A DNA stretch of 64,000 nt from an uncultured Bacteroidales bacterium. GTDB lineage: Bacteria; Bacteroidota; Bacteroidia; Bacteroidales; Paludibacteraceae. Positions 49,807-64,000 of this stretch are shown piece after piece. Numbering within the stretch: position 1 is the stretch's first letter; every line of letters starts with the position of its first letter. The DNA is taken from contig CAMHOY010000014.1 of assembly GCA_946186915.1 (NCBI GenBank), forward strand, positions 1,243 to 65,242, given 5' to 3'. The position numbers were made by a program, and so were the translations under genes. The notes under the pieces were generated by a model that was not told where the DNA came from, did not search any database, and saw nothing but the letters and a program-made list of their open reading frames with translations.

Positions 49807-50338
49807 AATCAAAAACACGGAATCAACAACGCTATCGCGTCTTACGTAATAGTTCCTTAATCTACTTGTGAGCAAGCTCCCAGATAGTTTAATGACCTAT
49901 TCCGCTAAGCACCAACGGTAAATCATTGTTGCTTGATTCCTCACAAAAACGCACTATGTTTACAAAAAATCGGGTTCTACAAACCCTTTCAAAAACCCAT
50001 GCGGTGTGTAGATATAAAAATGTTACGCCATGCATTGATGAGGTTTTTGATAGTGGAATGCAATGAAACGCTTTTTTGTGAGTGCAACGAATTTTTGTAA
50101 GCAGCTGACAGTGCACATGTGGGCAATGTCGAAGCAGAAATGACAATTAGGCTGTCTAGGAGTCTTGCTCACAAGCGCGAATTAATGGGGTCCCCGGCAA
50201 ATTTTAATTTGTGGGGAGAATGCGTAGCGCAATACGTAGCACTCTATAAGAGCTGTGCTCGTAATCGTGCGAGTATTAGCGTAAGCAAAAGGCGCGTGGG
50301 CCGTAGGCATAGCGGACGTAAGCTGCGCGTTTTTGATT
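49807..50338. repeat. nested-palindrome element, copy B (532 bp)
   Basis: The termini are AATCAAAAACACGG.../...CTGCGCGTTTTTGATT. Internal pairs include CTTGTGAGCAAGCTCCCAGATAG with CTGTCTAGGAGTCTTGCTCACAAG. Confidence 0.75.
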
Positions 50339-50365
50339 GACTAATTAACTAACAATACAACTGTA

Positions 50366-50812
50366 ATGCCTGACAAAACAACGATACATATGGCTCCGGA
50401 ACCTCGCAAAACGGAACTTGTTAATGCCACCTACGGCATTGTCGGTGCGATGATAGAAGTATATAAGAACCTCGGGGGTGGTTTGCCGGAGTATATCTAC
50501 CAAGAGGCTCTCTTTACGGAGCTGCAAACCAACGGCTTTATGGTACACAAAGAGTTGGAGTATCATCCCATTTACAAGGGCAAACCTCTTAATGCCTATC
50601 TAAAAATGGATTTGGTGGTAGAGACGCCTATCGGCAATGTGATAGTGGAATGCAAGGCTTTGACGGCGCTTACCGAACGGGAGCATTATCAAACCTTTGG
50701 GTACCTGCGCGGAACGGGATGGCCTGTGGCGATACTTGTCAACTTTGGTGCCAGCCCACGTGCACAGATAGAGCGATTTTATAATGACAATAACACCATC
50801 GCGGTGTTTTAA
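50366..50812 (+). CDS. GxxExxY-family protein (PD-(D/E)xK-like small protein)
   Basis: The family signature GGGLPEYIYQEAL is present, as is E.K in VIVECKAL. 148 aa. Confidence 0.8.
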   Translation: MPDKTTIHMAPEPRKTELVNATYGIVGAMIEVYKNLGGGLPEYIYQEALFTELQTNGFMVHKELEYHPIYKGKPLNAYLKMDLVVETPIGNVIVECKALTALTEREHYQTFGYLRGTGWPVAILVNFGASPRAQIERFYNDNNTIAVF

Positions 50813-50826
50813 ACAGAAAGGAGATA

Positions 50827-51090
50827 AATCAAAAACCCATGCGGCGTGTGGATATTAAAAATGTACACTATGAATTGAAAAGTTTTTGATAGTGGAATGT
50901 AATGGAACGCTTTTTTGTGAGTGAAACGAGTTTTTGTAAGCAGCTGACAGTGCACATGATTGGGCAATGTCGAAGCAGAAATGACAATTAGGCTGTCTAG
51001 GAGTCTTGCTCATAAGCAGACTAAATGGCATTTACGCTCAAGGCCGCGTAGGCCAATAGCCATGCGGACGTAGGCTGCGCGTTTTTGATT
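50827..51090. repeat. nested-palindrome element, copy C (right arm only, 264 bp)
   Basis: About 90% identical by eye to the right arm of copy B (49989-50170), with the same right terminus. Confidence 0.75.
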
Positions 51091-51117
51091 TAAAAATAAA
51101 CAGAAAAATATATAACA

Positions 51118-52410
51118 ATGAGTACAGCGATTGAATTCAATCATGTAAGCAAGCAATACCGCCTCGGCCTGGTCTCAACCAAGACCTTGTCCCATGACAT
51201 CCGCCGCTTCTGGATCACGAACGTCCTCGGCAAGGAGGACCCGTATCTCAAGATCGGCGAGACCAACGACCGTGCCTCCAAAGGCAACTCCGAGTACGTC
51301 TGGGCGCTGCGCGACATCGATTTCAAGGTCGAGCAAGGCGACGTCGTCGGCATCATCGGCAAGAACGGTGCCGGCAAATCTACACTTCTTAAACTACTCT
51401 CCAGAGTAACTGGACCTACTACAGGTACCATCAAAGCACGTGGCCGAATAGGTTCTCTCCTGGAGGTCGGCACAGGTTTCCATCCGGAACTGACGGGCCG
51501 CGAGAATATCTTCATGAACGGCGCTATCCTCGGCATGAGCCGTAGTGAGATTCAGGCCAAACTCGACGAGATTATCGACTTCTCCGGCTGCGAACGCTAT
51601 ATTGACACCCCGGTGAAACGCTATTCGAGTGGTATGACCGTCCGTCTGGGCTTCGCCGTGGCTGCTTTCCTCGAACCCGAGATTCTCGTTGTGGACGAAG
51701 TCCTTGCCGTCGGCGATGCCGAGTTCCAAAAGAAAGCCATCGGCAAGATGAAAGACGTCTCCACCGGCGAAGGCCGCACCGTCCTTTTTGTGAGTCATAA
51801 TATGGCTTCTATCCGAAGCCTTTGTAAGACAGGTGTGGTGCTTGACAAAGGAAGTGTTGCTTATATGGGGAATGTATTTAATGCAGTTGATTTTTATTTG
51901 TCACAAAATGCTTTTGTGCAAACAGCGACGCATGTAGATATTGAGGAGTCTCAGCACGATAAGAATCGTAGTATGGATGCGAAGATTATTATGGCTGAGT
52001 TTGTGGATGATAAATCTGTCTTTGCATCCGATGAAGATATTCGCATTCGTGTCAAAGTGCAATCTAGAGTTAATATCAATGAATGCCGGGTAAATATTGG
52101 TATATACAATGCAGATGAGACGCCAATAGGGTCATATTCATCTGATGCATTCTTTAAACTTAAAGTTGGAGAACTTAAATTACTAGAATATACATTGCAT
52201 CGTCCTAATCTTGCATTGGGCTCATACTCCCTAGCTTTCTCTGTGGGGATGGGAAATGCGCAAACAGGGGAAACCAATTTGGATGTGGTTCATCATGTGC
52301 TGACTTTCGATATAGATAGAATGTCTAAAGATGAAAAGAAGTTTTTCGTAAAGTGGGATAAGAGTTGGGGAACCATGCGTTTTGAAGCCTCGGTGAAAGA
52401 AATTGCGTAA
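51118..52410 (+). CDS. polysaccharide/O-antigen ABC transporter ATP-binding protein (Wzt/TagH-like) with a C-terminal extension domain
   Basis: Walker A GKNGAGKST, signature YSSGM, Walker B ILVVDE and H-loop FVSHN. A ~180-aa beta-rich C-terminal domain follows. Confidence 0.85.
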   Translation: MSTAIEFNHVSKQYRLGLVSTKTLSHDIRRFWITNVLGKEDPYLKIGETNDRASKGNSEYVWALRDIDFKVEQGDVVGIIGKNGAGKSTLLKLLSRVTGPTTGTIKARGRIGSLLEVGTGFHPELTGRENIFMNGAILGMSRSEIQAKLDEIIDFSGCERYIDTPVKRYSSGMTVRLGFAVAAFLEPEILVVDEVLAVGDAEFQKKAIGKMKDVSTGEGRTVLFVSHNMASIRSLCKTGVVLDKGSVAYMGNVFNAVDFYLSQNAFVQTATHVDIEESQHDKNRSMDAKIIMAEFVDDKSVFASDEDIRIRVKVQSRVNINECRVNIGIYNADETPIGSYSSDAFFKLKVGELKLLEYTLHRPNLALGSYSLAFSVGMGNAQTGETNLDVVHHVLTFDIDRMSKDEKKFFVKWDKSWGTMRFEASVKEIA

Positions 52411-52469
52411 TTGCTTCAGAAAAAGGAAACATCCAGTCAGGTTGGACACCATATAAACACATTTAGTAT

Positions 52470-53366
52470 ATGCTTTTTTCGATACTAATACCAACATATA
52501 ATAACGAGCAAACTATTGCAAAAGCAATTAATTCGGCATTAAATCAGAATTATGCAGATGAATATGAGATTATAGTCGTTAATAATGCATCTACAGATTC
52601 AACACTGCAGAAGATACAATCCTTTTCAGATTCCCGAGTGAAAGTATTTTCGAATGATCATACAGTACATATGTACGAGAATCATAATCTATGCATTCAG
52701 CATGCCCAAGGGGATTATGTAATCTTTTGCCATGCGGATGACGAATTATGCCCAAGTTCGTTAACCATATTATCGGAGGAGTTAAAAAAAAGATATTTTC
52801 CTTCAAAATGTATGATGTGGGGGTATAGTATGATTCGCGATTTTTCTCGGCACAAGAATGATTTTAAAATCAATCAAATGTTTAGTGGTGAGATTGCAAA
52901 GCGTGTATTTGTACAAGGTGGTTTAACTCCTTCGGGCACATGCTTTTCTCGGGAGGCTATGGTTTTGATAGGTGGATTTCCAATTGTGAGAGATACATAT
53001 GATATAGACTGGATTTTTGAAACAATTGCTGCTTTTAATGGATGGGAATTTGAGATGATTGACCGTTTATTATATAGAAGAGAATATGCCTCTACATATA
53101 CGGATGATCTTGCTCCTGAAATTCGTCAAAAACAGGTTAAAATAGCAGCAAACTCCATTTACTCTCATTTAAATTCCAAGCAGCAATATGAATTAAAATG
53201 CATGTGGTGGGAAGGAATAGCAGGCAACTTTGACCATATATTTGCAACGTCGCCTCCTACCAAAGAAGAACGGTTGGAAGCGTTAATGCAACGATATAAA
53301 AACGCTCCTTGGAAAGTATGGAAACTCCTCAAGTGGGTTCTTGTAAAGTACGAAATTTGGAAGTAA
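52470..53366 (+). CDS. family 2 glycosyltransferase
   Basis: FSILIPTYNNEQTIAKAINSALNQ...IIVVNNASTDST...CHADDEL. Confidence 0.85.
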   Translation: MLFSILIPTYNNEQTIAKAINSALNQNYADEYEIIVVNNASTDSTLQKIQSFSDSRVKVFSNDHTVHMYENHNLCIQHAQGDYVIFCHADDELCPSSLTILSEELKKRYFPSKCMMWGYSMIRDFSRHKNDFKINQMFSGEIAKRVFVQGGLTPSGTCFSREAMVLIGGFPIVRDTYDIDWIFETIAAFNGWEFEMIDRLLYRREYASTYTDDLAPEIRQKQVKIAANSIYSHLNSKQQYELKCMWWEGIAGNFDHIFATSPPTKEERLEALMQRYKNAPWKVWKLLKWVLVKYEIWK

Positions 53367-53436
53367 AGATTCGAATTGTTCCGCAAACTCCTAACCGGTA
53401 GACCAATACAACTATAAATGAAATTGAACAAATAAC

Positions 53437-54456
53437 ATGGATAATCCATTTAAAGAATATATTGAGACAGTACAAGAATTAGTCGCTTTGGAAGAAAAAA
53501 GCGAGCTTGCCTCGTATATATCAGAATCTAATATTGAAGCGGTTTTTGTCAGGTATGACAACTGGAATGGAGGAACAGAGTTCTATGATATAGCGATTAG
53601 TGTTCCAATCAAGGTGTTCGCGAGGATTAGATCAAAAATATCTGACGAGGAACAAACTATACGTAATGCTTTTAATGACGCAATGCATGGTGCAAATGAT
53701 TCCGTAAGGCTTAATGAAGTGAAGATTGTTCCGAGTAAATCAGCATCTGTCTCAAATATATCAATCACAGATGACGAGTCTATGTGGAAATATAATTATT
53801 ATCGATTATTCATTAGCCATCTCACGAAAGATAAAATAAGGGCGTCATATATTAAAGAAATTTTATTGCGATATGGAATAGATTGTTTTGTGGCCCATGA
53901 AGATATTTCTCCATCGAAAGAATGGCAGACAGTTATCGAAAATGCTTTATCTTCCACGGATGCACTCTGTGCTATTTTATCTCCAAATTTTATCAAGAGC
54001 CAATGGTGCGATCAAGAAGTAGGGTTCGCTTTAGGACGTCGTAAACTGGTTATACCAATCAGCTGCGGCGTAATTCCCTATGGCTTTATTGGGAAGTGGC
54101 AGGCAATTAAATCTGATGGCAAATCAAGGAATCAAGTTGCAAATGATGTGTTTAAGGCTATATGTACCAATGAGATTACGCGAAGCGGATATCTTGAGAA
54201 GCTGTTAAACCTAATAGTGGGCGCAAAATCGAAAGATGAAGCTTTGCAATTCTTAAACGTTTTTAAAGATATTAATGAAGTTGAAAAAAGATATGTAGAT
54301 ATCCTATATTCCCATTATGCAGATAATCACATATTAATGGAAAATGAATGCGTGAAAATAGCAAATCCCATATTTGAGCAGAATGGTCTTGAGACAATCA
54401 AGAAGAAGTCGCCCATAGAAACTCCAGTACCTCAAAATATAGATTTACCATTCTAA
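53437..54456 (+). CDS. TIR-domain protein with unknown N- and C-terminal domains
   Basis: Central TIR signature: LFISHLTKD...CFVAHEDISPSKEW...AILSPNFIKSQWCDQEVGFALG. The Glu after the WC motif is conserved. Confidence 0.75.
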   Translation: MDNPFKEYIETVQELVALEEKSELASYISESNIEAVFVRYDNWNGGTEFYDIAISVPIKVFARIRSKISDEEQTIRNAFNDAMHGANDSVRLNEVKIVPSKSASVSNISITDDESMWKYNYYRLFISHLTKDKIRASYIKEILLRYGIDCFVAHEDISPSKEWQTVIENALSSTDALCAILSPNFIKSQWCDQEVGFALGRRKLVIPISCGVIPYGFIGKWQAIKSDGKSRNQVANDVFKAICTNEITRSGYLEKLLNLIVGAKSKDEALQFLNVFKDINEVEKRYVDILYSHYADNHILMENECVKIANPIFEQNGLETIKKKSPIETPVPQNIDLPF

Positions 54457-54461
54457 ACATA

Positions 54462-55163
54462 ATGACTGAAACAAATTTAATAGAGTTTTTTTGTCAACCA
54501 ATGAATTTCGTGCAAGGGATTATTTTATTAACTCTATCTATAGGGTTATATTGGTTAATTGCATATTTTAGAAAATCAGGAAGCAATACTGCCGACAAGA
54601 AGGATAAGCGTGGGATTTCTTATGAGGGCAAAAAAGGCGAGAATATAGCAGATGAAGAAGATCAGGTTTCTCAAACGCAAAAAGAAAGGTTAATAAAAAT
54701 CTTATATATTGCAGAAAAGATTAACCAAGCGCAAAACAAATATTTTCTATACTTGTACGATCTTTCAAACAGAACGAGGTTAGATAAGTTAGTAGAAGAT
54801 ATCAATGAACTATTAACTGATTTATATCACGAGCAAAGATTAGCAAATATTTTTCTACCAGATGAACAGCAAAAGATGATGGATGAATTAGTTACAAATG
54901 CTAGTGGTATCGTGGTCGAGTTGTCAACAAACTCTTCAAATGCTGGTAATTGTATATCTGCCTTTAATCATTTTATGGATTATGCCAATATTCATAAAGA
55001 AGAGCAAAGCACATATTGGGAACATTCTAAAAAATGTATGGGGCAAATTGAAGAAATGAAAAAGAAAAAACTGATGTTTAAGGAAGAATATCAGCAATCA
55101 ATACAGAAATATGCAAGTTGGTTAGGTGAGTACATTAGACAGAATATAAAAGTAATGGAGTGA
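54462..55163 (+). CDS. single-pass membrane protein with an all-helical C-terminal region
   Basis: TM segment GIILLTLSIGLYWLIAYF, a Lys-rich linker and then ~150 aa of predicted helix. It begins 5 nt after the TIR stop. Confidence 0.5.
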   Translation: MTETNLIEFFCQPMNFVQGIILLTLSIGLYWLIAYFRKSGSNTADKKDKRGISYEGKKGENIADEEDQVSQTQKERLIKILYIAEKINQAQNKYFLYLYDLSNRTRLDKLVEDINELLTDLYHEQRLANIFLPDEQQKMMDELVTNASGIVVELSTNSSNAGNCISAFNHFMDYANIHKEEQSTYWEHSKKCMGQIEEMKKKKLMFKEEYQQSIQKYASWLGEYIRQNIKVME

Positions 55164-55263
55164 AGTCATAGTGGCGTGGGTTGTGATTGTCGGACTAAAC
55201 TCTAATAGTCTAATACTACATTTCTTTTCTAAGATGTGAAATAAAGAAAAGTTTAGCAATACC

Positions 55264-57042
55264 ATGGTTGAAATATGTTATTTCTTTATACAAAGTTTTC
55301 GTTCTCTACATGAAATAGGAATCAGTCTGGATGCGCATTATTTGTATTCAATCGATAAGGAGAAAAGAGAGATAATGATAAGACCGAATCCTACTTATGT
55401 GAAAGGGTTCTGGTCTGAAGGTATATCATCTATTTCTGCTATTGTCGGGAATAACGGAGCAGGAAAAACATCTGCCTTACTATATATGATTCAAGCATTA
55501 GAGGAAGGAAATGGAGAGGATGAAGTGATGGCAATTATCATATATAGGCAGAATGGAGTATTATATGCTTATATGCCGGAGAGTTATAGTTATGGCTATA
55601 GTTTAATATGTGATATCTCAGAACCAATTCATTTGGTAAAACAAAGGCCAAGATTGAATATATTTTATTATTCGTCATATTTCCGACCATATCAAAATTG
55701 GTTCGAACCGGGCGAAGGAGAATTTAGCGGTGTATATAATGCATCTGATACATGGCGATTGATAAAAGACTATCAAGATTATGCTAATATAGATACGATG
55801 CATCGGACAGAATCTGTCGGCGAGCATATGGACGCCCTACATATTCAAGACAACAACAGAATAGTGCAGCTAATTTGTGACAGGGAGTTGCGTGAACTTC
55901 TGCCAAAGAATACAATCCCACAATATATTATCATTAGTCCGAATATGTCAGGTTACGACCGACTGAACTACGAGCGAAGAAAAAAGGATCCTCGGGGGGA
56001 CGGGATTTCTTTACCTTTATTCGAATCGTCAGAGGAGAAAGGCCTGGCTGATATAGTAACTGCGAGTTTGTGCAGTATCGGAGTTGAGCACGCAATGTTA
56101 TCTGACTATGTCCAAAATATTCTTGATAAATGGGCAGACTTATTCAAAGAAAAAAAGAATGTGCAAACAGCATTGGCAGAATTAGCGGATGAGTTTATTG
56201 AAGTGCATGAGCATATTCAAGAGTTGCAGGAGGTTGTTCTTTTTTTGAAAGATACATGCGAGAAAGGTGATGATATCGATGTGTTGTATATCGATTCCAA
56301 TAAGCCGGACAGTTACGAATGTATTAATAAACTGAAGGAATATTTCTCGATGCGCTCCTTTGTTGTGGCGCATTATTTTGATTTGTATTTTTCTCATGTC
56401 CCTTATTCTACTTCTCGATTGAGTTCTGGAGAATATGACATGCTCAAATTTTTCTCTCGGTTATATGATGCAGTCTGCATACAGCCGAGTCGCTTTGACA
56501 ATCTGACCAGCCCGCAATTATTATTGATTGATGAGGCAGAGAATAGCTATCATCCAGAATGGCAAAGAAAGTTTGTAAGTCTGTTAGTGAAGTTCACGCA
56601 AGCACTTTATGGCAGAACCGGAAATCATAGAGCATTTCAGATTATATTGACCACCCATTCCCCTATTCTATTGTCGGATATTCCCCGAATGTTTGTCAAT
56701 TATCTCGAAAAAGATGAAGAAACAGGACTAGTGTCAGTATCAAGTCGACAACCAGAGACCTTTGGCACGAATGTTTTTGAATTGTATAAGCATGCGTTCT
56801 TTATGGATAAAGGGCTGATTGGGGAGTTTGCTCAAGATAAAATAAGGGGTGTCCAATATGCGATAGAGCATCGCACTCTTTCCAGAGATGAAATCTTGCA
56901 AACGATAGAGTTAATAGGAGATAAAGCGATAAAAATTTATTTTTATTCGTTATTGGAAAGAGATGGCGAGGAAGAAATGCTGTCATATTATGAGCATAAA
57001 GTATTAGAACTAAAGGATAATATACATGCAGCAGATAAATAA
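55264..57042 (+). CDS. ABC-like AAA ATPase (AAA_15/21 type; Septu PtuA-like)
   Basis: Walker A GNNGAGKTS, Walker B LLLIDEAENSYHP and TTHSPILL. Confidence 0.75.
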   Translation: MVEICYFFIQSFRSLHEIGISLDAHYLYSIDKEKREIMIRPNPTYVKGFWSEGISSISAIVGNNGAGKTSALLYMIQALEEGNGEDEVMAIIIYRQNGVLYAYMPESYSYGYSLICDISEPIHLVKQRPRLNIFYYSSYFRPYQNWFEPGEGEFSGVYNASDTWRLIKDYQDYANIDTMHRTESVGEHMDALHIQDNNRIVQLICDRELRELLPKNTIPQYIIISPNMSGYDRLNYERRKKDPRGDGISLPLFESSEEKGLADIVTASLCSIGVEHAMLSDYVQNILDKWADLFKEKKNVQTALAELADEFIEVHEHIQELQEVVLFLKDTCEKGDDIDVLYIDSNKPDSYECINKLKEYFSMRSFVVAHYFDLYFSHVPYSTSRLSSGEYDMLKFFSRLYDAVCIQPSRFDNLTSPQLLLIDEAENSYHPEWQRKFVSLLVKFTQALYGRTGNHRAFQIILTTHSPILLSDIPRMFVNYLEKDEETGLVSVSSRQPETFGTNVFELYKHAFFMDKGLIGEFAQDKIRGVQYAIEHRTLSRDEILQTIELIGDKAIKIYFYSLLERDGEEEMLSYYEHKVLELKDNIHAADK

Positions 57043-57967
57043 AAATAGTGGGCGATTGGGTTTTGACGGACAGTTTCGGAAATGGGAAACAATAGAAGAT
57101 GAATTCAAAACGAGATTCCTATCTGGAATAATAACCGAGTTACAAACTATGCAGCAATCTTCAGACCCGAAATTTCACGGATTGTTGCGATGGTGTATTG
57201 ATAATACTGTAGATTGGATTGTAGCTAAGCCACTTGCATTGAAAACGGCGAAAGAAACAGCTGATAGATTGGGATATACGGAGTTGCTAAAAGGAGATAA
57301 GATATTCCGCGACCAATTAAAAAATGCATACGGATATGACCATGATAAATTGTTGTTTTTAGCAAATTGGTTAAATGTGAAGACTTGTCCGTATTGCAAT
57401 ATGCATTACACGCTTTATGCAGAGGACTATATAAAGAAAAGAACGATTCATAAAATGGCGAAATTCCAGTTTGACCATTTCTATAGCAAAGCAGAATATC
57501 CGATGTTTGGCATGTCGATGTATAACTTGATTCCATCGTGTGCATCTTGTAATCAAGGCAAATCGAAAGGTGAACTCAGTTTGGATTTTCATCCATATTA
57601 TACGGATATAGGAAGGAATTTTAAATTTGAGGTAAAGAATCCAATACCGCTTTTGATTGGGAAAGATGAAGATGATTTGGATGTCCATTTAATGCCCATA
57701 AATGGGGCGAATCTGACTGACTTTAAGAATAAATTCCATATAGAAGGATTATACCAGCGTCATAAAGATGTGGCACGAGAGGTGTTTGCTAGAGCATATG
57801 TTGATGCATATTATGGTAATTGGATGAACTTTGCTTTTCTGGAAGATCAAAAATTAGCAGAAAGGATAAGTAAAGGATTTTATTATAGCGAGGATGAAAT
57901 TGAATTGCGCCCTATGACTAAATTCCAACAAGACCTGTGGAAACAGGCGAAAGGAATAATTGGGTAA
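57026..57967 (+). CDS. HNH endonuclease (Septu PtuB-like)
   Basis: CPYCN...FDHF...YNLIPSCASCNQGK (CxxC-DH-N-CxxC). It overlaps the ATPase gene by 17 nt. Confidence 0.7.
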   Translation: MQQINKNSGRLGFDGQFRKWETIEDEFKTRFLSGIITELQTMQQSSDPKFHGLLRWCIDNTVDWIVAKPLALKTAKETADRLGYTELLKGDKIFRDQLKNAYGYDHDKLLFLANWLNVKTCPYCNMHYTLYAEDYIKKRTIHKMAKFQFDHFYSKAEYPMFGMSMYNLIPSCASCNQGKSKGELSLDFHPYYTDIGRNFKFEVKNPIPLLIGKDEDDLDVHLMPINGANLTDFKNKFHIEGLYQRHKDVAREVFARAYVDAYYGNWMNFAFLEDQKLAERISKGFYYSEDEIELRPMTKFQQDLWKQAKGIIG

Positions 57968-59203
57968 TTGTTGGGTGTGAAGAGTAACGAAGGACTGAAC
58001 ATATCATCCAAAGAGTTATCTCCTGAAGGGCGTAAACAACTGTGTGCCACGTTAGGGCTAAATATGCTTGCTTATCGAGTGCAAGCAAATTGGTTATTTG
58101 CGCGCCTTCAAGAGAAACAAGAAACAAATCAGGATTTACTATTTCGAATAACCATCATCAGTATGGATTTGTGTGCGTCTATTCGTGCATGTCTGCGATA
58201 TGAGAACTCTTATGAGCGAAGGTATCATATCAAGTATATGATAGTTAATCTATACGAAGCATACAGCGCATTTTATAATGAGGCTTCGGATAGAAAATCG
58301 TATATAGCCAAATGGGAAAGTAGAAATCCTTCCATAAAGGATGATGAAGTGTATGTAGCATTATGCAAAGAGTTAGAAGGATTGAGAGTACAATTACATG
58401 ATGATATCAAAGATTCGCGTAATAGTTTTGCGCATTATGATGACGATCCTATAGAGACTGCAAAATTCATACTCGGCATAGATAGCGAAGAAAAACCAAC
58501 GAGATGGAGTTGCGATTTGCTTAAGGTTTTTCATATGATGAAGAAGGTGTGTGAAACGCGACATAAATTCGTTATTGATGCGTCGGTACAGTCTATCTCG
58601 TTAGAGACAATTATAGTGGGATTGGTTCGTAAACAGTTGAGAAGCAATAAGGATTTGATAGAATGTGTAATGGAGGTGTCGGGGACAGCAGAGAAAGATT
58701 TGCGAGAAGACATTTGCTCGTTTGAGTTTATCAAAAAGTATGGCGATAATAGTCAAGAGATAGTTTTGCTACTCATGAGAATCAATGTCTTGATTCAAAT
58801 CATGCGTGCTGATTTGGCATCGGCAGTAAAGGCTTGTATTTATTCGGATTCAGATATGGAATGTGTGATGCAAATCCGTAGATTAGTTATCATCCGGCAG
58901 GAAGGAATTGGACATTTGCAAGATTTGTGGAGTCAGATGCCGGAAACGCTTATTGATAAGGAGGATAATGCGCATATAGAAGCGATAAAGAATGAGATTC
59001 TAAACGGAGAACGGAACAAATTGCTTCACTATCGTTACAGGAGTAGCGATTATATAAAGTTCTGCTATGCATATTGCTCTAATAGTCTTAATATGATTAA
59101 TGGATTGATTGATGTGCCACCATTGCTGAATGAGTTAACTGCTCTGGAACAAAGCCTGACACGAAAATTGCTGAGAGTTAGAGACGAAAATCTCCATAAT
59201 TAG
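57968..59203 (+). CDS. helical protein with two Rx4H motifs (tandem HEPN-like)
   Basis: RNSFAH lies in the first half and RNKLLH in the second, each at the end of a ~190-aa helical unit. It starts directly after the HNH stop. The start codon is uncertain (TTG at 57968, first ATG at 58064). Confidence 0.5.
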   Translation: MLGVKSNEGLNISSKELSPEGRKQLCATLGLNMLAYRVQANWLFARLQEKQETNQDLLFRITIISMDLCASIRACLRYENSYERRYHIKYMIVNLYEAYSAFYNEASDRKSYIAKWESRNPSIKDDEVYVALCKELEGLRVQLHDDIKDSRNSFAHYDDDPIETAKFILGIDSEEKPTRWSCDLLKVFHMMKKVCETRHKFVIDASVQSISLETIIVGLVRKQLRSNKDLIECVMEVSGTAEKDLREDICSFEFIKKYGDNSQEIVLLLMRINVLIQIMRADLASAVKACIYSDSDMECVMQIRRLVIIRQEGIGHLQDLWSQMPETLIDKEDNAHIEAIKNEILNGERNKLLHYRYRSSDYIKFCYAYCSNSLNMINGLIDVPPLLNELTALEQSLTRKLLRVRDENLHN

Positions 59204-59267
59204 AGCTATTAATAGGTGAAAAAATACTTGTTTTGATTACAAAATAAAGAAAAAAAACATTTTTGTG

Positions 59268-59298
59268 TCCATATACTTGTGTATATGGATTATTTTTT
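59268..59298 (+). terminator. rho-independent terminator
   Basis: TCCATATAC-ttgt-GTATATGGA followed by TTATTTTTT. Confidence 0.75.
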
Positions 59299-59307
59299 GT
59301 AATTTTG
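59276..59307 (+). promoter_or_regulatory. promoter of the second GT2 gene, nested in the terminator hairpin
   Basis: cTTG at 59276-59279 lies in the hairpin loop. TAATTTTG at 59300-59307 follows 20 bp later. Confidence 0.55.
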
Positions 59308-59333
59308 TACGCTAAATTGTGATATAAAATCAA

Positions 59334-60191
59334 ATGAAAACCAACCAACCATTATTTTCGGTACTGATTGCCAATTATAATAATGGCAAATATCTGATGG
59401 ATGCGGTAGAGAGTGTCCGTCAGCAGACGTATGCGAACTGGGAGATTGTTCTGGTGGATGATGCATCTACGGATAACTCCAAAGAATTATACAAGGAGTT
59501 AGAAAAAGACGAACGTATCCATATCTATCGCAATGATAAGAATATGGGCTGCGGCTATACGAAGCGTCGATGTGCTGAGTTGGCAAAAGGAGACTTGTGT
59601 GGTTTTTTAGATCCGGATGATGTGTTATTACCAAATGCGATAGGGGATAGTGTGAGGAATCTGGAAGCACATCCGGATTGTGTGCTGAGTTTTTCAAGGT
59701 TCTATACTTGTGATGAGAAATTGAACAAGACGGGTGAGTGCCGATTATTAGAACTGAATGGCAAGAGTTATTTCGAGAATCGTGATTATTGTCCCGAGCA
59801 CTTCGTCGCATTCCGTAAAGAGGCGTATGATAAATCGGGGGGAATAGATGCAACTCTGAAAGCTGGAGTAGACCAAGATTTGTATTTTCGGTTGGAAGAG
59901 GTAGGCGAGGCAGTGGTCCTTAATAAATTCACGTATCTGTATCGACAGAACACGAATGCATTGACATCGAATCCATATTGGTGCTATTATTGGAATACAA
60001 TTGTGCGGCATAATACTTGTCAACGTCGCGGCTTGCCGGATAAGGACTATGCGTATGCGGACTTCTTGCAGATAGTGACAGAGAATGAAAAATATGCACA
60101 AGAACAAGTAGTGAAGATGCAACAATCCAAAGCCTACCGCCTAGGTAAATTGTTGCTCAAACCATTTGGATGGATGAAGAGAAAGAAATGA
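59334..60191 (+). CDS. family 2 glycosyltransferase
   Basis: FSVLIANYNNGKYLMDAVESVRQQ...IVLVDDASTDNS...LDPDDVL. Confidence 0.85.
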   Translation: MKTNQPLFSVLIANYNNGKYLMDAVESVRQQTYANWEIVLVDDASTDNSKELYKELEKDERIHIYRNDKNMGCGYTKRRCAELAKGDLCGFLDPDDVLLPNAIGDSVRNLEAHPDCVLSFSRFYTCDEKLNKTGECRLLELNGKSYFENRDYCPEHFVAFRKEAYDKSGGIDATLKAGVDQDLYFRLEEVGEAVVLNKFTYLYRQNTNALTSNPYWCYYWNTIVRHNTCQRRGLPDKDYAYADFLQIVTENEKYAQEQVVKMQQSKAYRLGKLLLKPFGWMKRKK

Positions 60192-60216
60192 TAAATTATT
60201 AAAACAAATTTGAATC

Positions 60217-60627
60217 ATGGCATCTAAAACTTACACCTTGAATTTTATTGGTTATAAATGGGAGAAAGATTTGCCTAATGAGACAGGTATCTATCTCACG
60301 TATACAGTAAAATACAATGAAAACGAACAAAAGTATTATCTAGATAAACTAGTTTATATTGGGGAATCTGAGGATATAAAAGAGCGCCAGGCTGAACATT
60401 TTGCAGATGGAGACTATCCTCGGGGTACGAAATTAGCATATGCATATGCTTTGTTATCAGGTGATGAGAATCATCGTAAACGATGTGAAGCTGCTTTGAT
60501 ATTCAAAGTAAAACCCGAATGGAATACAGCAAACAAACAGTCATTCAACTATGAATCAACTACTGTAGATTCAGTTGGAGAGCACTTTGGCATCCCCGAA
60601 GAATTCATCGTGAGTAGATTGATTTAG
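60217..60627 (+). CDS. stand-alone GIY-YIG-like nuclease domain protein
   Basis: GIYLTY...LVYIGESEDIKERQAEH...CEAALI...WN. The GIY, YIG, R, E and N positions are in the expected order. Confidence 0.55.
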   Translation: MASKTYTLNFIGYKWEKDLPNETGIYLTYTVKYNENEQKYYLDKLVYIGESEDIKERQAEHFADGDYPRGTKLAYAYALLSGDENHRKRCEAALIFKVKPEWNTANKQSFNYESTTVDSVGEHFGIPEEFIVSRLI

Positions 60628-60687
60628 AAAAGCATAGAAGGCATATCAACTTGGTAAAGCGTTGTTGCGGTTGAGAAGGAAATAGTT

Positions 60688-61869
60688 ATGTTTGAATCTA
60701 TAGTCATAAAATATAATAAACACTATCATACTCTCGGTAATATAATCGAGTGCTTGTTGTTTTATGACGACGTGAATCTTATTGTCGACAAAATAGAGGA
60801 TTTGCCATCCTTGTGGGCAAAAATTGGAATAGATGGATTAATCCGACTTAAAAACTATGGACTACATCTATTTATGTCGACAAGCACAATTGGATGTGGA
60901 GATGTAACAGGGAATGGAGAAGATGTATACTATTTTCATTTATGTGAAGAAAGTATGCGACATCGTATTTGCGAAAAAGCGGTTAAGGAATTTTATGAGA
61001 CAGAGACATTAGATTCGAAAAAACAAAAAATCGTGCAACTCTATCATGATGCATCCGAGGATTTCTCATACCCAGAACGTGCGAGAGAGGCAATGCATGA
61101 TGATATATACCAGCATTTCGTACATAAAGAAATACTTCAAGCTCAACTAAAGGAGATAAACTCACCGCTTTCTATGTTTGATCCGCATAATAAGTATGAG
61201 TTTAAAAAAGTATCTAATGGCTTTGTCTTTAACACTACATTGTTGACCGGAGAGTTAGAAGAACAAGCACGTAGGGAAGGCTATGTAGATATGCAATTCA
61301 GACATGCTACATTTTTGATTAAGCTTACTGAAATGTATGGAGTAATGGATTTTGCTGCAGAAAAAGATAGTGCTCTGTGTGTTACACCTGCTGAGTCTAT
61401 TATTGTTTCATGTAAGCAAAAGGATATACTACAGAGATATTCAGAAGAGCATACTCAAATAGAGAATTTCGAGAAATTAGAGGTGTCTTCGTTTGCGAGC
61501 ATAGCAGAGGTTGTGGATTCAGGAGAAAAGTCCATTGATGAAATATGCGAATTGCTTGATTGTGCACAAGAATTTAAGGATTGGAAAAGAAGTTTGTCCA
61601 ATGAAAGTGATTTCTTGGTAGAATATCAAAAAGCACTGCAATCTAATTTGCCGTGGGTGCAGAGATTACCTATTAAATGGACTCGTCTAATACTCACATC
61701 CGGAATAGGCCTTATTCCTCTAGTAGGAAGTGTATTAGGCCCTGTTGCAAGCGGACTGGATACCTTCTTGATTGACAAGTGGCAAGCAGGTGGTTGGAAA
61801 CCGGCACAGTTTGTAAATGGTGAACTGAAGCGGTTTGTGAGCGAAATGAAAAAGGATGAGACACGATAA
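60688..61869 (+). CDS. hypothetical protein with a C-terminal hydrophobic/Gly-rich segment
   Basis: 393 aa with no recognisable catalytic motif. The C-terminus ILTSGIGLIPLVGSVLGPVASGL is probably membrane-inserting. Confidence 0.45.
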   Translation: MFESIVIKYNKHYHTLGNIIECLLFYDDVNLIVDKIEDLPSLWAKIGIDGLIRLKNYGLHLFMSTSTIGCGDVTGNGEDVYYFHLCEESMRHRICEKAVKEFYETETLDSKKQKIVQLYHDASEDFSYPERAREAMHDDIYQHFVHKEILQAQLKEINSPLSMFDPHNKYEFKKVSNGFVFNTTLLTGELEEQARREGYVDMQFRHATFLIKLTEMYGVMDFAAEKDSALCVTPAESIIVSCKQKDILQRYSEEHTQIENFEKLEVSSFASIAEVVDSGEKSIDEICELLDCAQEFKDWKRSLSNESDFLVEYQKALQSNLPWVQRLPIKWTRLILTSGIGLIPLVGSVLGPVASGLDTFLIDKWQAGGWKPAQFVNGELKRFVSEMKKDETR

Positions 61870-61898
61870 TCGAAAATGGAAAAACTAAAACAATACAA

Positions 61899-61906
61899 TA
61901 TATTTG
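61899..61906 (+). promoter_or_regulatory. possible -7 box for the DUF262 operon
   Basis: TATATTTG lies 25 nt upstream of the ATG. There is no good -33 element. Confidence 0.4.
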
Positions 61907-61930
61907 TCAAATTTTTAATAGTTTAATATT

Positions 61931-63100
61931 ATGGAAGAACTAGATGAAAAAATGTATGATGGTGACTACGATGTGAATGAGGATGACGTTAATGTTACCG
62001 AATACAACATATCTGTAGCGCCTAATGATTTTAACATTAAGACAATTTTTGACTTTATAGAGCATGGTGTTGTTAAAATCCCAGCATTTCAAAGGAATTA
62101 TGTCTGGGATATTAAACACGCATCAAAATTAATAGAGTCTCTACTCATTGGCGTACCCATTCCGCAAGTATTCTTGTATGAAGAGAAGAAGAATAGTTTT
62201 TTAGTAATAGATGGACAGCAACGCTTGATGACTATTTATTATTTTATGAAAAAGCGTTTCCCTCGTAAGGATAAGCGTGTGGAATTGAGACAAATATTTG
62301 ATCAGAAACATACAATACCGGATGAAATTCTTCATGATAATCAATATTTTAGTGACTTTAACTTAGTGCTTCCTGAAAATTTACCAGATAAAAAAAACAG
62401 GTTTAACAAGAAAAATTATGCCACATTAAATGACGAAGATAGAATATCCTTTGAACTAAAGACGCTAAGAAATATTATAGTCAAGCAAGCAGTAGTTGAA
62501 GAGGATGACTCTGTGGTATTTGAGATATTTAATCGTCTTAATTCCGGAGGCGTCAACTTAAAACCGCAAGAGATACGCACTAGTTTATTTCATTCGGCTT
62601 TCTATGATATGCTTTATCGCATAAACCTAATAGAACAATGGAGGTACTTGCTGACGAATGAGACACCAAATATTAATATGAAAGATGTCGAAATCTTACT
62701 TCGGGGATTTGCTATGTTAGTTCTTCATGGGGAGTATAAACCAAGCATGAATAAATTTTTAAATGTATTCTCTAGAAAAGCACAGAGTTTTAAAGAAGGG
62801 GATATTGCGTTTTACGAAGGTTTATTTGTCCGGTTTTGTGAAATGATGTCGGCATTAGAAGACAATTCGATATTTTTAACAAACAAGAATCGATTTAATA
62901 TATCTGTTTACGAGGCGGTGTTCACTGCGTTATGCGAAGAGGCATATATTGCTAAAGACGTGTCTCTTATTAAGGAGACAACCATAGAAAAGATTAAAGC
63001 ACTTAAAGAGGATCCTGCATTTTTAAACGCTTCCTTGCAAAGCACAGCTAGCTCTAATAATGTAACGATTCGTATTAAGAAGGCGAAAGAAATGTTATGA
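61931..63100 (+). CDS. DUF262 (ParB/GmrSD N-terminal-like) protein without a DUF1524 nuclease domain
   Basis: IPAFQRNYVW and VIDGQQRLMT motifs. Confidence 0.85.
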   Translation: MEELDEKMYDGDYDVNEDDVNVTEYNISVAPNDFNIKTIFDFIEHGVVKIPAFQRNYVWDIKHASKLIESLLIGVPIPQVFLYEEKKNSFLVIDGQQRLMTIYYFMKKRFPRKDKRVELRQIFDQKHTIPDEILHDNQYFSDFNLVLPENLPDKKNRFNKKNYATLNDEDRISFELKTLRNIIVKQAVVEEDDSVVFEIFNRLNSGGVNLKPQEIRTSLFHSAFYDMLYRINLIEQWRYLLTNETPNINMKDVEILLRGFAMLVLHGEYKPSMNKFLNVFSRKAQSFKEGDIAFYEGLFVRFCEMMSALEDNSIFLTNKNRFNISVYEAVFTALCEEAYIAKDVSLIKETTIEKIKALKEDPAFLNASLQSTASSNNVTIRIKKAKEML

Positions 63101-63645
63101 GTACGGCGGTAGATAACATATGGCAAGAGTATGTGTCTGTGCGCGACCTTTTAACCGAATTGAAAGAAGTTTCTGCATTGAGCGATTACACAAATACTAT
63201 GCGTAAGGTAATAATTTTATCTTGCGGTAGTTATTTTGAGCATGAAATGACAGAAATGTTGAAGGGTTATGTGTTAGAAGCAAGTAATGGTAATGAACTT
63301 ATTGCATCATTTCTTGAAAAACAAGCTATACAGCAGCGGTATCATACCCTATTTGATTGGGGTAAGCAAGACGAACCGGGTCAACCAAGTACGTCCGCGA
63401 AAAAATTCTGGAAACTATTTGGGAATGATTTTTGCACGAATGTGGAGATAATAATCAAAGAGAAGCCAGATGTTAAAGAATCGCAAGAGGCATTTCTGGA
63501 ATTAGGACATTTGCGTAATATATTAGTACATAGCAATTTCGCTGACTATATTTATGCAGATAAGACACCGGAAGAGATTTTTTCGTTATATCAGAAAGCA
63601 AGTAAGTTTATTCCTTTTATTAAGGAAAAGTTAAACGAGCAATAG
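63097..63645 (+). CDS. small HEPN-like protein
   Basis: Rx4H motif in ELGHLRNILVHSNF within an all-helical 182-aa protein. An ATGA overlap links it to the DUF262 gene. Confidence 0.55.
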   Translation: MSTAVDNIWQEYVSVRDLLTELKEVSALSDYTNTMRKVIILSCGSYFEHEMTEMLKGYVLEASNGNELIASFLEKQAIQQRYHTLFDWGKQDEPGQPSTSAKKFWKLFGNDFCTNVEIIIKEKPDVKESQEAFLELGHLRNILVHSNFADYIYADKTPEEIFSLYQKASKFIPFIKEKLNEQ

Positions 63646-63744
63646 CAGGACAATAATCAAGAGCGGAGTATGGAGGAAAGATGATGTCGAGATTTGGGCA
63701 AAGAATGGGGAGCAGATATTGAATTAATAATACAAAAATTATAT

Positions 63745-64000
63745 ATGGGAGCAATATTACATAAACTTATTTCAATACACGGGATTGGCAAATTCTGTAA
63801 GTATGATTTAGTAAAACCAGGATGGAATGGAATCTTTTCGGATTGTAATGCAATCTATGCAGACAACGGCAGTGGGAAGACGACATTTACGCAGATTTTA
63901 AAATCGCTGAGTAAAGAGTCTGACATCAAAACTTTGCAGAAAAGGAAATCCTTTGATTATAGTGAAGATGTTTTGATTGACATGTTGGCATCAAATGGTA
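63745..64000 (+). CDS. AAA_13-type (RloC/PrrC-like) ATPase, N-terminal part (runs off the window)
   Basis: ISIHGIGKFCKYD....IYADNGSGKTTFTQILKSL. This N-terminal layout is typical of the family. Confidence 0.55.
   Translation, partial: MGAILHKLISIHGIGKFCKYDLVKPGWNGIFSDCNAIYADNGSGKTTFTQILKSLSKESDIKTLQKRKSFDYSEDVLIDMLASNG

Follow-up and report, generated by a model that had tools for sequence, protein, structure and literature searches.

Thoeris systems, described as types I-XI, combine a TIR protein (ThsB) with an effector, and in several types the effector is a transmembrane protein. Defence genes are also found embedded in or attached to other modules: PrrC, in the prr locus, is an abortive-infection gene lodged in a type I restriction-modification (R-M) locus, and exclusion or moron membrane genes of the lactococcal Sie2009 and lambda Rex types are expressed together with the repressor in prophages. 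TIR proteins can also act alone, and single-protein TIR systems have been experimentally validated as defences in E. coli (PMC11350192).

The 64,000-nucleotide stretch of Bacteroidales DNA analysed here (the window) carries a TIR gene followed closely by a gene for a small protein with a single transmembrane (TM) helix. A preliminary description had proposed that the two constitute a two-gene abortive-infection module, either as a dedicated Thoeris-like sensor/effector pair or with the TIR protein itself acting as the NAD-depleting effector. Comparison of the two families and their neighbourhoods indicates instead that the genes are probably two independent single-gene defence cassettes, juxtaposed in a defence-rich polysaccharide locus.

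Layout and setting of the gene pair

Both ORFs have the lengths and coordinates first given for them (Table 1), and homologue searches place them in conserved protein families, ruling out chance ORFs. The TIR stop codon and the TM start codon are separated by 5 nt on one strand, most other gene junctions in the window measuring 70-130 nt. A promoter/terminator scan returned no terminator between the two genes; its counts were close to chance, and its sigma-70 model is inapplicable to Bacteroidota.

The surroundings of the pair are the low-GC glycosyltransferase (GT) part of a Bacteroidales polysaccharide locus, a variable region with its genes on one strand. A defence-rich setting is indicated by the PDC-M62A and PDC-M62B genes directly downstream, which form a separate neighbouring candidate system, and by an NsnA-like gene and a HEPN gene farther on. 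PDC-M62 is missing from L001, a locus otherwise syntenic with the window, in which the TM gene is followed by one small reverse ORF and then by the GT2 gene that occupies positions 59270-59899 of the window. Cassette-boundary repeats were sought across positions 50000-64000, and none flanks the TIR or the TM gene. A literature search found no papers on defence genes within Bacteroidales polysaccharide loci.

Table 1. Coordinates of the two genes, their encoded domains and adjoining features in the window.
Feature	Position	Strand	Basis
Left edge of TIR cassette, intergenic leader behind GT2 stop codon	53367..53436	+	similarity to L001 from 53367
TIR gene	53437..54456	+	ORF, 339 aa; stop codon 54454-54456
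N-terminal alpha/beta domain, residues 1-115, HDNWNGG motif	53437..53781	+	AF2 pLDDT 80-92, H-H-E-E-H-E topology
TIR domain, residues ~118-225	53788..54111	+	Pfam, AbTIR profile alignment, Foldseek
Putative catalytic Glu E194, codon GAA, in W-C-D-Q-E	54016-54018	+	profile alignment to AbTIR NADase W..E motif
Helical C-terminal domain, residues ~230-316	54124..54384	+	AF2 helices 231-315, pLDDT about 90
C-terminal tail N-I-D-L-P-F, residues 334-339	54436..54453	+	conservation in TIR-family relatives
TM-protein gene	54462..55163	+	ORF, 233 aa; ATG at 54462
Transmembrane helix, residues 15-36, predicted N-out/C-in	54504..54569	+	hydropathy and K/R distribution
Recombination breakpoint inside TM gene	54555..54615	+	identity to L001, 60-nt windows; shared block to left
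PDC-M62 candidate defence system, separate neighbour	55264..57967	+	PADLOC PDC-M62A 5.1e-70, PDC-M62B 1.4e-40
PDC-M62 ATPase gene	55264-57042	+	PADLOC
PDC-M62 HNH protein gene	57026-57967	+	PADLOC

The TIR protein has a conserved catalytic motif and unassigned flanking domains

The 339-aa protein is built from an alpha/beta N-terminal domain, a TIR domain, a helical C-terminal domain, a variable linker and an acidic LPF tail. Pfam TIR_2 matches residues 125-224 (E = 4.9e-17) and Pfam TIR also matches (1.3e-08), and a Foldseek search with the AF2 model retrieves AbTIR, BtpA and the SPARTA TIR. Among Thoeris profiles, Pfam ThsB_TIR (PF08937) scores 16.6 bits, under its 21.2-bit cut-off, the PADLOC ThsB matches are weak (1.4e-07) and the NCBIfam ThcB4 match lies far under its cut-off. 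PADLOC PDC-S66 gives a weak, partial match confined to residues 65-195 (E = 8.9e-07, 26.6 bits). Such weak partial matches to the TIR protein are all that PADLOC yields for the pair, with none to the TM protein, and the pair corresponds to no catalogued system.

The NADase-type Glu reported in the preliminary description is upheld by alignment: E194, within S-Q-W-C-D-Q-E, is invariant in a 36-sequence alignment (A2), and 119 of 120 relatives carry the motif W[CT].QE. E155, the Glu of FVAHEDI, is likewise invariant in A2 but is not the catalytic Glu. Judged from these sequence features, the protein is a putative NADase.

The regions to either side of the TIR domain, which had earlier resisted assignment, continue to do so, as neither the N-terminal (about 115 aa) nor the C-terminal (about 110 aa) part could be placed in a family by Pfam, NCBIfam, profile or PDB searches. 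W43 and G46 of the N-terminal domain are invariant in A2; the domain has no significant match among PDB sequences and, used alone as a homologue-search query, returned zero matches even though full-length homologues exist. Foldseek resemblances of this domain to an Era KH domain and to an integron-cassette protein were distrusted (TM-score ≤0.35, E ≥0.03). In L064-L066, in L068 and in a protein from a Klebsiella plasmid, an unrelated N-terminus has been swapped in, with the TIR domain and tail retained, and we propose that the N-terminal domain is a swappable sensor or specificity module. The helical C-terminal domain stays alongside the TIR domain in distant relatives and is missing in L068.

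An acidic C-terminal tail in the TIR family resembles that of SSB

Conservation extends to the extreme C-terminus of the TIR family, where P-F ends all 120 relatives, L occupies position -3 in 118 and D or E position -4 in 102. The linker preceding this tail is variable, and residues 327-333 are modelled with pLDDT below 50. The window and the loci compared at that stage contain 1,315 ORFs that are 90 aa or longer; 24 of these end in [IL]PF, every one a member of the TIR family. More distant TIR relatives, from Actinomycetota and Rickettsiales, lack the tail. The C-terminal peptide of SSB (SSB-Ct) reads DDDIPF in E. coli and Klebsiella and DDDLPF in S. aureus and B. subtilis (PMC5531588, PMC5872125). 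The TIR tail is similar in placing one or more acidic residues and [IL]-P-F at a free C-terminus behind a variable, low-confidence linker, as illustrated in Klebsiella, where the plasmid-borne TIR relative ends in SDDIPF and SSB in DDDIPF. It differs in being borne by a TIR protein, not by an OB-fold ssDNA binder, and in that strong conservation is confined to positions -4 to -1. A beta-clamp-binding motif was set aside as a weaker reading of the tail, position -5 being mostly polar or acidic and not hydrophobic. A literature search turned up no paper that describes an SSB-like tail in a TIR protein.

Going by this resemblance, we tentatively raise the rather unlikely idea that the tail mimics that of SSB as a bait or address label, which would tie NAD+ depletion to events at the replication fork. 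The putative NADase may be docked on the replication and repair proteins that interact with SSB, or, in another version, phage proteins that hijack SSB tails may bind the decoy and so trigger it.

The membrane protein is a predicted helical bundle on a single anchor

The outline first given for the downstream protein, one N-terminal TM segment and a helical body, agrees with hydropathy and structure prediction. The only hydrophobic segment is the N-terminal helix (Kyte-Doolittle mean 1.99). It is preceded by no K or R and followed by six within 20 residues, and the combination of single helix and charge pattern is present in 55 of 57 relatives. This K/R distribution predicts the orientation listed in Table 1 and hence a cytoplasmic helical bundle. 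The AF2 model shows the body as an all-helical, five-helix bundle, with pLDDT above 90 at residues 70-230 and 78.8 for the model. A shorter, 220-aa product would result if translation began at M14.

The TM protein and 35 relatives have no meaningful match in Pfam, PADLOC, NCBIfam or PHROGs, and none of these proteins contains a SLOG, Macro, SLATT, DUF2270 or DUF6650 domain, as expected from the earlier report that the protein has no signal-binding motif. Foldseek comparison of the model with PDB and BFVD retrieved generic helical bundles only (E ≥0.15), a PDB profile search with the TM alignment (A3) produced nothing significant, and no pore-forming or ligand-binding signature was recognised in the protein.

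The two genes keep different company

The two families differ greatly in size. The ~338-aa TIR family, common in gut and rumen Bacteroidota, yielded 1,574 homologue matches, and its full-length clusters (40-100% identity) number more than 120. The TM family is tiny, with 20 homologue clusters at 50-91% identity, two loci in a scan of GTDB genomes and three fragments in a scan of JGI metagenomes. Neighbourhoods were compared in a small sample, skewed to long contigs, of about nine TIR and 11 TM lineages.

Co-occurrence in other genomes, which had been put forward as the check on a dedicated pair, is largely absent from these loci: the TIR and TM genes are adjacent only in the lineage of the window and in one close relative, L001-4. 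Outside the window/L001 lineage, all seven TIR contexts are without a TM gene and all nine TM contexts are without a TIR gene, a distribution that tells against the proposed Thoeris-like pair. The TIR relatives sampled without a TM partner (30-76% identity) contribute to a total of eight distinct downstream neighbours for the family. In a mobilisable element of Parabacteroides goldsteinii, within a type I R-M operon, the TIR relative is followed by RhuM; elsewhere the next gene encodes a UDP-GlcNAc 2-epimerase, an HNH_5 protein beside MmeI/DEAD, or, in two lineages (72-76% identity), Olokun OloA/OloB. Further relatives lie beside phage genes (L062) or beside hsdR (L067), and on a Klebsiella IncF plasmid no same-strand gene follows immediately. 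Qualitatively, the defence and mobile neighbours of the family take in type I R-M, MmeI/DEAD, Olokun, AbiEii, putAbiC, CAP12-TIR, PDC-M62, phage and plasmid.

Upstream of the TM gene there are at least five different genes, or none. Besides the TIR gene (window and L001-4), these are a Ymh-HEPN gene in three lineages, an AriA-like ATPase gene in L006 (full-length match to PADLOC AriA, 2.3e-29), a pair of 173-aa and 164-aa ORFs of no known family at one locus, and a 340-aa ORF in L012; L009, L010 and L029 have no gene within 110-160 nt upstream. The TM gene lies 5-15 nt behind a co-oriented gene in six of the 11 lineages, closer than most local junctions, the gaps behind the TIR, Ymh and AriA-like genes being 5, 5, 6, 13, 13 and 15 nt. 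Adjacency of the Ymh and TM genes has persisted despite divergence (Ymh 48-71% identical, TM 63-75%), a hint that some upstream genes may have the TM protein as a genuine partner; one Ymh relative (L032) is without a TM gene. Nine of the 11 TM lineages are found amid glycosyltransferase, epimerase or acyltransferase genes, L010 and L034 being the loci outside sugar-gene surroundings, and other defence systems in TM-family loci include CBASS, AbiEii, Olokun and PDC-M62.

A set of 62 remote TM relatives was collected, and relatives of this kind (25-31% identity) were detected in 25 viral contigs; a tblastn search of GenBank phages with one of them gave no match. The five phage-contig units inspected are short and begin with a Cro/CI-type HTH gene, with companions that vary; in L041, and in four contigs whose match statistics are identical, the HTH gene has no companion but the TM gene. 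This repressor-proximal slot was seen only for remote relatives in gut phage contigs, the subfamily of the window being chromosomal.

The pair is a mosaic

Alignment of the window with L001 shows that the TIR and TM genes of the window have discordant histories, the TIR proteins being 91% identical and the TM proteins 61%. In 60-nt windows, DNA identity is 80-100% over positions 53415-54554, including 95-100% across the gene junction (54375-54554), and drops to the right of 54554 to 83% and then to 50-77%, which marks a breakpoint inside the TM gene (Table 1). A second locus, L017, which has the TIR gene only, is similar to the window over positions 53407-54454, that is, the TIR gene and 30 nt upstream. 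Because similarity to L017 is limited to this interval, the unit that moves is the single TIR gene.

Weighing the explanations

The many other neighbours of each gene point to two independent cassettes rather than to a dedicated sensor-effector pair, and they equally undercut the proposed two-gene abortive-infection module. The reading we consider probable is therefore that of separate TIR and TM cassettes in one locus, and of the possibilities raised initially it is the TIR protein as NAD-depleting effector in its own right that fits best. The TIR gene would then encode a stand-alone member of the large, uncharacterised ~338-aa family. Infection would relieve autoinhibition of the TIR domain through the N-terminal alpha/beta domain, the acidic LPF tail or both; the TIR domains would assemble, the E194 active site would hydrolyse NAD+, and the resulting NAD+ loss would lead to abortive infection, with no call for a dedicated partner. 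The TM protein would work on its own, excluding phage or aborting infection from the membrane's inner face, an autonomy that we infer from context only, because sequence and fold gave no function. The genes would lie 5 nt apart because they are co-transcribed in a compact operon on one strand, and not because their pairing is obligate.

A different design, which we regard as possible though rather unlikely, would make the TM protein a promiscuous second component, a membrane effector or anchoring regulator that serves any upstream defence protein. A variable enzyme (TIR, Ymh-HEPN RNase, AriA-like ATPase or others) would be combined with a constant TM protein, the window pair being one such combination, and the TM protein may thus be a universal plug-in partner of unrelated abortive-infection enzymes. 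The TM gene is indeed always downstream and co-oriented, and its distance from the TIR, Ymh or AriA-like gene is short, as given above; in three lineages the Ymh and TM genes have diverged together; in L006 it sits behind an AriA-like ATPase, in the place that AriB has in PARIS; and the breakpoint falls in the conserved linker of the TM gene, so that upstream cassettes could be swapped onto a constant TM body. However, the TIR family and the Ymh relative in L032 are found without a TM gene, the TM genes of L009, L010 and L029 have no nearby defence partner, and the remote TM relatives stand alone behind a phage repressor-type gene. Moreover, TM bodies only 61% identical follow near-identical TIR proteins, which gives no sign of co-adaptation, and a single TM helix with no pore-forming or ligand-binding signature offers little to such a role. 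A toxin-antitoxin arrangement in which the TM protein would neutralise the TIR protein was rejected, most TIR relatives having no TM gene.

Two further accounts fare worse. That the TM protein is an accessory of polysaccharide biosynthesis or export, or of phage serotype conversion, with the TIR gene merely inserted beside it, would explain the presence of its gene both in polysaccharide loci (the nine of 11 lineages amid sugar-enzyme or acyltransferase genes) and in a lysogenic-conversion slot of phages; repressor-proximal phage slots also carry surface-modification genes. We nevertheless consider it very improbable, in that the predicted bundle is cytoplasmic, unlike chain-length regulators, the immediate neighbours of TM genes are usually defence genes and not sugar enzymes, L010 and L034 lack the sugar-gene surroundings, TM loci are full of the unrelated defence systems listed above, and the GC content of the TM gene, 0.31, is below even that of the flanking GT genes. 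Very improbable too, in our judgement, is a Thoeris-like pair in which the TIR protein makes a cADPR-type signal that the TM bundle binds in order to damage the membrane. The catalytic Glu, the tight linkage and the weak ThsB and sub-cut-off ThcB4 matches are compatible with it, and a recent preprint adds many Thoeris types that include TM effectors of unknown fold (bioRxiv 10.64898/2025.12.03.692087). Yet the co-occurrence of TIR and effector that defines such systems is absent, seven TIR contexts having no TM gene and nine TM contexts no TIR gene, the TM family is also found behind a HEPN RNase and an ATPase, neither of them a signal synthase, none of the five effector-type domains sought is present, ThsB_TIR stays below its cut-off, and the large extra domains of the TIR protein are typical of stand-alone proteins. 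FVAHED and WCDQE do not occur among the Thoeris TIRs in the part of Table S1 of the same preprint that was compared, which counts as weak evidence.

The tempting designation of a new Thoeris type is thus struck off as unsupported, and the locus illustrates how tight spacing in the one-strand polysaccharide operons of Bacteroidales can mimic a two-gene system. The comparison also defines a large family of stand-alone TIR proteins in which the catalytic site is clear, the N-terminal module swappable and the SSB-like tail conserved, features that open the possible sensing of infection by a lone TIR protein to concrete tests. It further brings out a new family of membrane-tethered helix bundles, with members both in chromosomal loci rich in defence genes and in the repressor-proximal slot of phages from the gut, and it suggests that defence cassettes have hot spots in the variable glycosyltransferase parts of polysaccharide loci in Bacteroidales.

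Comparison with known systems

Like Thoeris, the window pair consists of a TIR gene followed by a gene for a membrane protein in a defence context. It departs from Thoeris in that the partnership is not conserved, the same TM family pairing with non-TIR genes, and in that the membrane protein, with its single TM helix, carries no signal-binding domain of a known kind. The placement of PrrC is paralleled by the TIR relatives that lie between hsdM/hsdS and hsdR in Parabacteroides goldsteinii, and also by that in L067, whereas the copy in the window lies outside an R-M operon, and the putative effector is a TIR domain, not an anticodon nuclease. With the Sie- and Rex-type genes the TM gene shares a small, N-terminally anchored product and, in its remote relatives, a position in HTH-headed phage units. 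The TM protein has no sequence or fold relation to described Sie or Rex proteins, is predicted to be mostly cytoplasmic and, in the subfamily of the window, belongs to chromosomal polysaccharide loci.

Stand-alone TIR defence proteins and NADases have the W..E motif in common with the TIR protein, AbTIR and BtpA being its best structural and sequence matches, and their genes likewise occur as single mobile genes in defence islands, R-M operons, plasmids and phage contigs. No experimentally tested member was identified in the ~338-aa family, which is set apart from these proteins by its own unassigned alpha/beta N-terminal domain, its helical C-terminal domain and its near-invariant acidic LPF tail.

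Genomic setting of the two genes

The co-oriented TIR and membrane-protein ORFs, whose positions, lengths and 5-nt spacing are as first described (Table), lie in a region where GC content, ~0.51 across the first 50 kb, drops to 0.34-0.38 between ~52,000 and the window end (TIR gene, 0.36; membrane-protein gene, 0.31). From 51,118 onward every gene is on the + strand, in the order Wzt-type ABC ATPase, GT2 glycosyltransferase, TIR, membrane protein, PDC-M62 (a PADLOC candidate system; ATPase, 5.1e-70; HNH protein, 1.4e-40), a 411-aa ORF, a second GT2, a weak GIY-YIG-like ORF, a 393-aa ORF, an NsnA/GmrSD_N protein (4.3e-57) and a RiboL-PSP HEPN protein; sugar-nucleotide genes, identified by eye only, lie upstream. 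These neighbors place the pair in a polysaccharide locus interleaved with defence genes, within its variable glycosyltransferase portion.

Inspection of the surroundings revealed several further features. The PDC-M62A ATPase and PDC-M62B HNH genes overlap by 17 nt, and the 411-aa ORF, which begins at a TTG with zero gap after PDC-M62B and has no family match, could be a third component; the block is missing from the otherwise syntenic L001, a locus of a close relative lineage, such that the window gains PDC-M62 and the 411-aa ORF between the membrane-protein gene and the next GT2. Direct repeats that look like a duplication or insertion scar flank a PD-(D/E)XK (PDDEXK_3) gene immediately before the Wzt gene. 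A conserved element with a 10-bp hairpin and a T-run after it lies just upstream of the second GT2 gene and may be a terminator or cassette boundary; it recurs in L001 and, ahead of a DUF1016 gene, in L005. Defence genes also stand between co-oriented glycosyltransferase, epimerase and acyltransferase genes in L001, L005, L006, L017, L023, L026 and L029; such Bacteroidales loci hold CBASS with SAVED and E2, AbiEii, HipA, ThsB-type TIRs, AAA_15+DUF4276, GmrSD, Ymh-HEPN and PDC-M62. Across many unrelated contigs, the low-GC variable regions of these polysaccharide loci seem to be hot spots for defence cassettes, a subject on which a literature search found no paper.

Table. Coordinates of features in the window and in relative loci
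Feature	Locus	Coordinates	Strand	Remarks
TIR ORF, 339 aa	window	53437-54456	+	ORF call
Membrane-protein ORF, 233 aa	window	54462-55163	+	ORF call
TIR C-terminal tail	window	54436-54453	+	near-invariant acidic [DE]-[IL]-P-F
PDC-M62A/B and 411-aa ORF	window	55264-59203
PDDEXK_3 gene	window	50366-50812
Direct repeats	window	50043-50349, 50882-51101		~200 nt, 76-98% identical, three segments
Conserved element	window	59267-59344		~78 nt
Hairpin and T-run	window	59267-59300
Conserved element	L001	~8939-9010
Conserved element	L005	4162-4237
Interleaved defence genes	window	52000-64000
Ymh upstream of membrane-protein gene	L005	7257-8660
Ymh upstream of membrane-protein gene	L023	5251-6663
Ymh upstream of membrane-protein gene	L026	5256-6663
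Ymh downstream of membrane-protein gene	L009	7968-9760
AriA-like ATPase, then membrane-protein gene	L006	4415-6602		also L007, L008
TIR in type I R-M operon	L014	4231-13017		P. goldsteinii-type
TIR in type I R-M operon	L067	3379-10206
Repressor-headed phage unit	L039	4219-6765

A TIR family with an SSB-like tail

Pfam confirmed the TIR domain (TIR_2 at residues 125-224, E 4.9e-17; TIR, 1.3e-08) and assigned nothing to the first ~115 or last ~110 residues, while NCBIfam matches fell far under their cut-offs. The best 120 of 1,574 database matches are nearly all ~338-aa proteins matching over their full length at 40-100% identity, and include a Parabacteroides goldsteinii protein found on 880 contigs. 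In a 36-sequence alignment, conservation spans the whole length, taking in an N-domain with HDNWNGG, the TIR-domain motifs F-I-S-H, F-V-A-H-E-D and W-C-D-Q-E-V-G, a helical C-domain and an invariant C-terminal L-P-F. A PDB profile search placed W190...E194 on the catalytic W...E motif of AbTIR, an Acinetobacter NADase, marking E194 as the predicted catalytic glutamate; the motif W[CT].QE is kept in 119/120 relatives, in keeping with the Glu originally noted as expected for NADase chemistry. In the AF2 model (pLDDT 73.5) the alpha/beta N-domain and the helical C-domain are confidently predicted and parts of the TIR domain are uncertain; Foldseek returned weak matches to AbTIR, BtpA and SPARTA TIR domains, with no convincing match for either flanking domain. 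The N-domain is swappable, since L064-66, L068 and a Klebsiella plasmid protein have another sequence in its place and yet keep the TIR domain and tail.

All 120 family representatives end in P-F, preceded by L at position -3 in 118/120 and by D or E at -4 in 102/120, with a mean of 2.4 acidic residues at positions -8 to -3. A set of 1,315 ORFs no shorter than 90 aa, taken from the window and the loci retrieved by that stage, contains 24 that end in [IL]-P-F, all of them TIR-family; the acidic form also closes the TIR genes of L001, L014, L017, L020, L030, L032, L062-L068 and L069. The tail follows a variable linker of low model confidence and is retained through N-domain replacement, even with the C-domain lost in L068. 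The Klebsiella protein terminates in S-D-D-I-P-F; more distant relatives from Rhodococcus and Pseudarthrobacter (Actinomycetota) and a Rickettsiales endosymbiont have no such tail. SSB has a matching C-terminal tail, which reads DDDIPF in E. coli and Klebsiella and, in S. aureus and B. subtilis, DDDLPF (PMC5531588; PMC5872125). The TIR tail may dock on SSB-interacting proteins, act as bait for phage proteins or function within a TIR oligomer. A literature search found no paper describing an SSB-like tail on a TIR protein.

A rare membrane-protein family with relatives in phages

Pfam, PADLOC and NCBIfam gave zero matches for the membrane protein, in which no known signal-binding motif had been noted initially. 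Its family comprises only 20 clusters (50-91% identity, all metagenomic) among 5.8 billion proteins searched. A scan of 185,579 GTDB species genomes gave two matches, each in a Paludibacteraceae MAG, and JGI metagenomes yielded three fragments. The AF2 model (pLDDT 78.8; residues 70-230 >90) has an N-terminal helix joined by a disordered basic/acidic linker (residues 38-60) to a five-helix bundle; Foldseek matched it to nothing but generic bundles in PDB and BFVD. Nearly all members have a single hydrophobic helix with no K/R before it and 3-6 after, a charge pattern that predicts an N-out/C-in topology with a cytoplasmic bundle.

A profile search of 1.84 billion representatives found 62 remote relatives; most are ~250 aa and contain the membrane helix, a K-G-x-N-x-A-T-K-E-D motif and the bundle, and none of them is assigned to a Pfam, PADLOC or PHROG family. 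Remote relatives are encoded on 25 viral contigs (18-57 kb, mostly one gut dataset); in five inspected cases the gene belongs to a short unit that runs rightward from a Cro/CI-type HTH gene (HTH_3, HTH_26 or Phage_CI_repr) and is flanked, where checked, by leftward PHROG-assigned phage genes. Companions differ by unit (a dCTP-deaminase-like gene, a P63C-domain gene, other unknowns), and in L041 and four contigs with identical match statistics the membrane-protein gene is the sole other gene. Such a unit is the classic site of prophage accessory or exclusion genes, which argues that the fold can act alone.

Other likely defence or accessory genes occur in the repressor-headed units of these viral contigs (L037-L061), with a 191-229-aa unknown recurring, which points to an accessory-gene slot of variable content in gut phages of this group.

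Neighbors and history of the two genes

The preliminary description had proposed a two-gene abortive-infection module. Within our sampling of about 9 TIR and 11 membrane-protein lineages, the two adjoin, 5 nt apart, in the window and in L001-4. Elsewhere the membrane-protein gene follows Ymh (PF09509, with an R-N-P-K-[AS]-H HEPN-type motif; gaps of 6, 15 and 13 nt in L005, L023 and L026), an AriA-like ATPase (13 nt; L006-8), 173-aa and 164-aa unknowns beside a KAP NTPase (65 nt; L034-36), a 340-aa ORF at a short gap (L012; its relative lies 2 kb downstream in L010), or no close gene (110-160 nt; L009, L010, L029). The TIR gene is followed by RhuM inside hsdM...hsdS...hsdR on a mobilisable element (L014-16), an epimerase (L017-19, 65% identity), HNH_5 (L020-22), Olokun OloA/OloB (L030-33, 76% and 72% identity; PADLOC OloB 3.3e-110), phage genes (L062) or hsdR (L067), and on a Klebsiella IncF plasmid by no same-strand gene immediately downstream. 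Across the sampled lineages, this variety limits TIR-membrane protein adjacency to one shallow lineage.

Comparison with L001 speaks against the module as well, in that the TIR proteins are 91% identical and the membrane proteins only 61%. Over 60-nt sliding windows, identity is 80-100% across 53415-54554, including 95-100% at the junction (54375-54554), and falls to 50-77% in the remainder of the membrane-protein gene, indicating a recombination breakpoint inside that gene. DNA similarity to L017, which has the TIR gene alone, spans 53407-54454 only, indicating that the mobile cassette is the TIR gene by itself.

Some of these contexts deserve separate description. L014 has hsdM, a small ORF, TIR, RhuM, an unknown gene, hsdS, T5orf172 and hsdR in that order, and in L067 the TIR gene directly precedes hsdR; both call to mind the PrrC-type abortive-infection genes that R-M enzymes guard. 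The Ymh-membrane protein pairs come from three diverged lineages and look like the oldest association of the membrane-protein family; in L009, Ymh lies 370 nt downstream instead. The AriA-like ATPase (PADLOC AriA 2.3e-29, full-length match) precedes the membrane-protein gene where PARIS has an AriB-type TOPRIM nuclease, and L006-8 may represent a PARIS-like variant in which a membrane protein fills the effector slot, or a chance juxtaposition.

Interpretation and comparison with known systems

We consider it probable, though well short of assured, that the locus consists of two independent cassettes. The TIR protein would be a stand-alone abortive-infection enzyme in which the swappable N-domain, the tail or both sense a trigger that releases TIR self-association and then NAD+ hydrolysis at E194; experiments in E. 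coli have established that a single TIR protein can provide defence (PMC11350192). The membrane protein would be a membrane-tethered cytoplasmic bundle, most probably one that acts autonomously in exclusion or abortive infection, and the 5-nt gap would reflect co-transcription in a compact operon. The main rival, that the membrane protein is a promiscuous partner of whichever enzyme is encoded upstream, draws on the consistently short gaps before its gene, on the persistence of Ymh pairs through divergence (Ymh 48-71%, membrane protein 63-75% identical) and on its taking the AriB position after the AriA-like ATPase; we regard it as possible but rather unlikely. A polysaccharide-related role for the membrane protein, disfavored by its predicted topology and immediate neighbors, is very improbable, and the originally suggested Thoeris-like signaling pair, which fails two defining features of Thoeris (a signal-binding effector domain and conserved TIR-effector co-occurrence), is about equally improbable.

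PADLOC recognized no catalogued pair, giving only weak and partial ThsB and PDC-S66 matches for the TIR protein. Three points merit targeted follow-up: the tail, the way the membrane-protein gene is shuffled among abortive-infection enzymes, and the polysaccharide loci laden with defence genes. The TIR-membrane protein pair lies outside Thoeris and every catalogued system, and the TIR gene represents a new family within the stand-alone TIR defence proteins, from which it differs by its distinctive flanking domains and tail.
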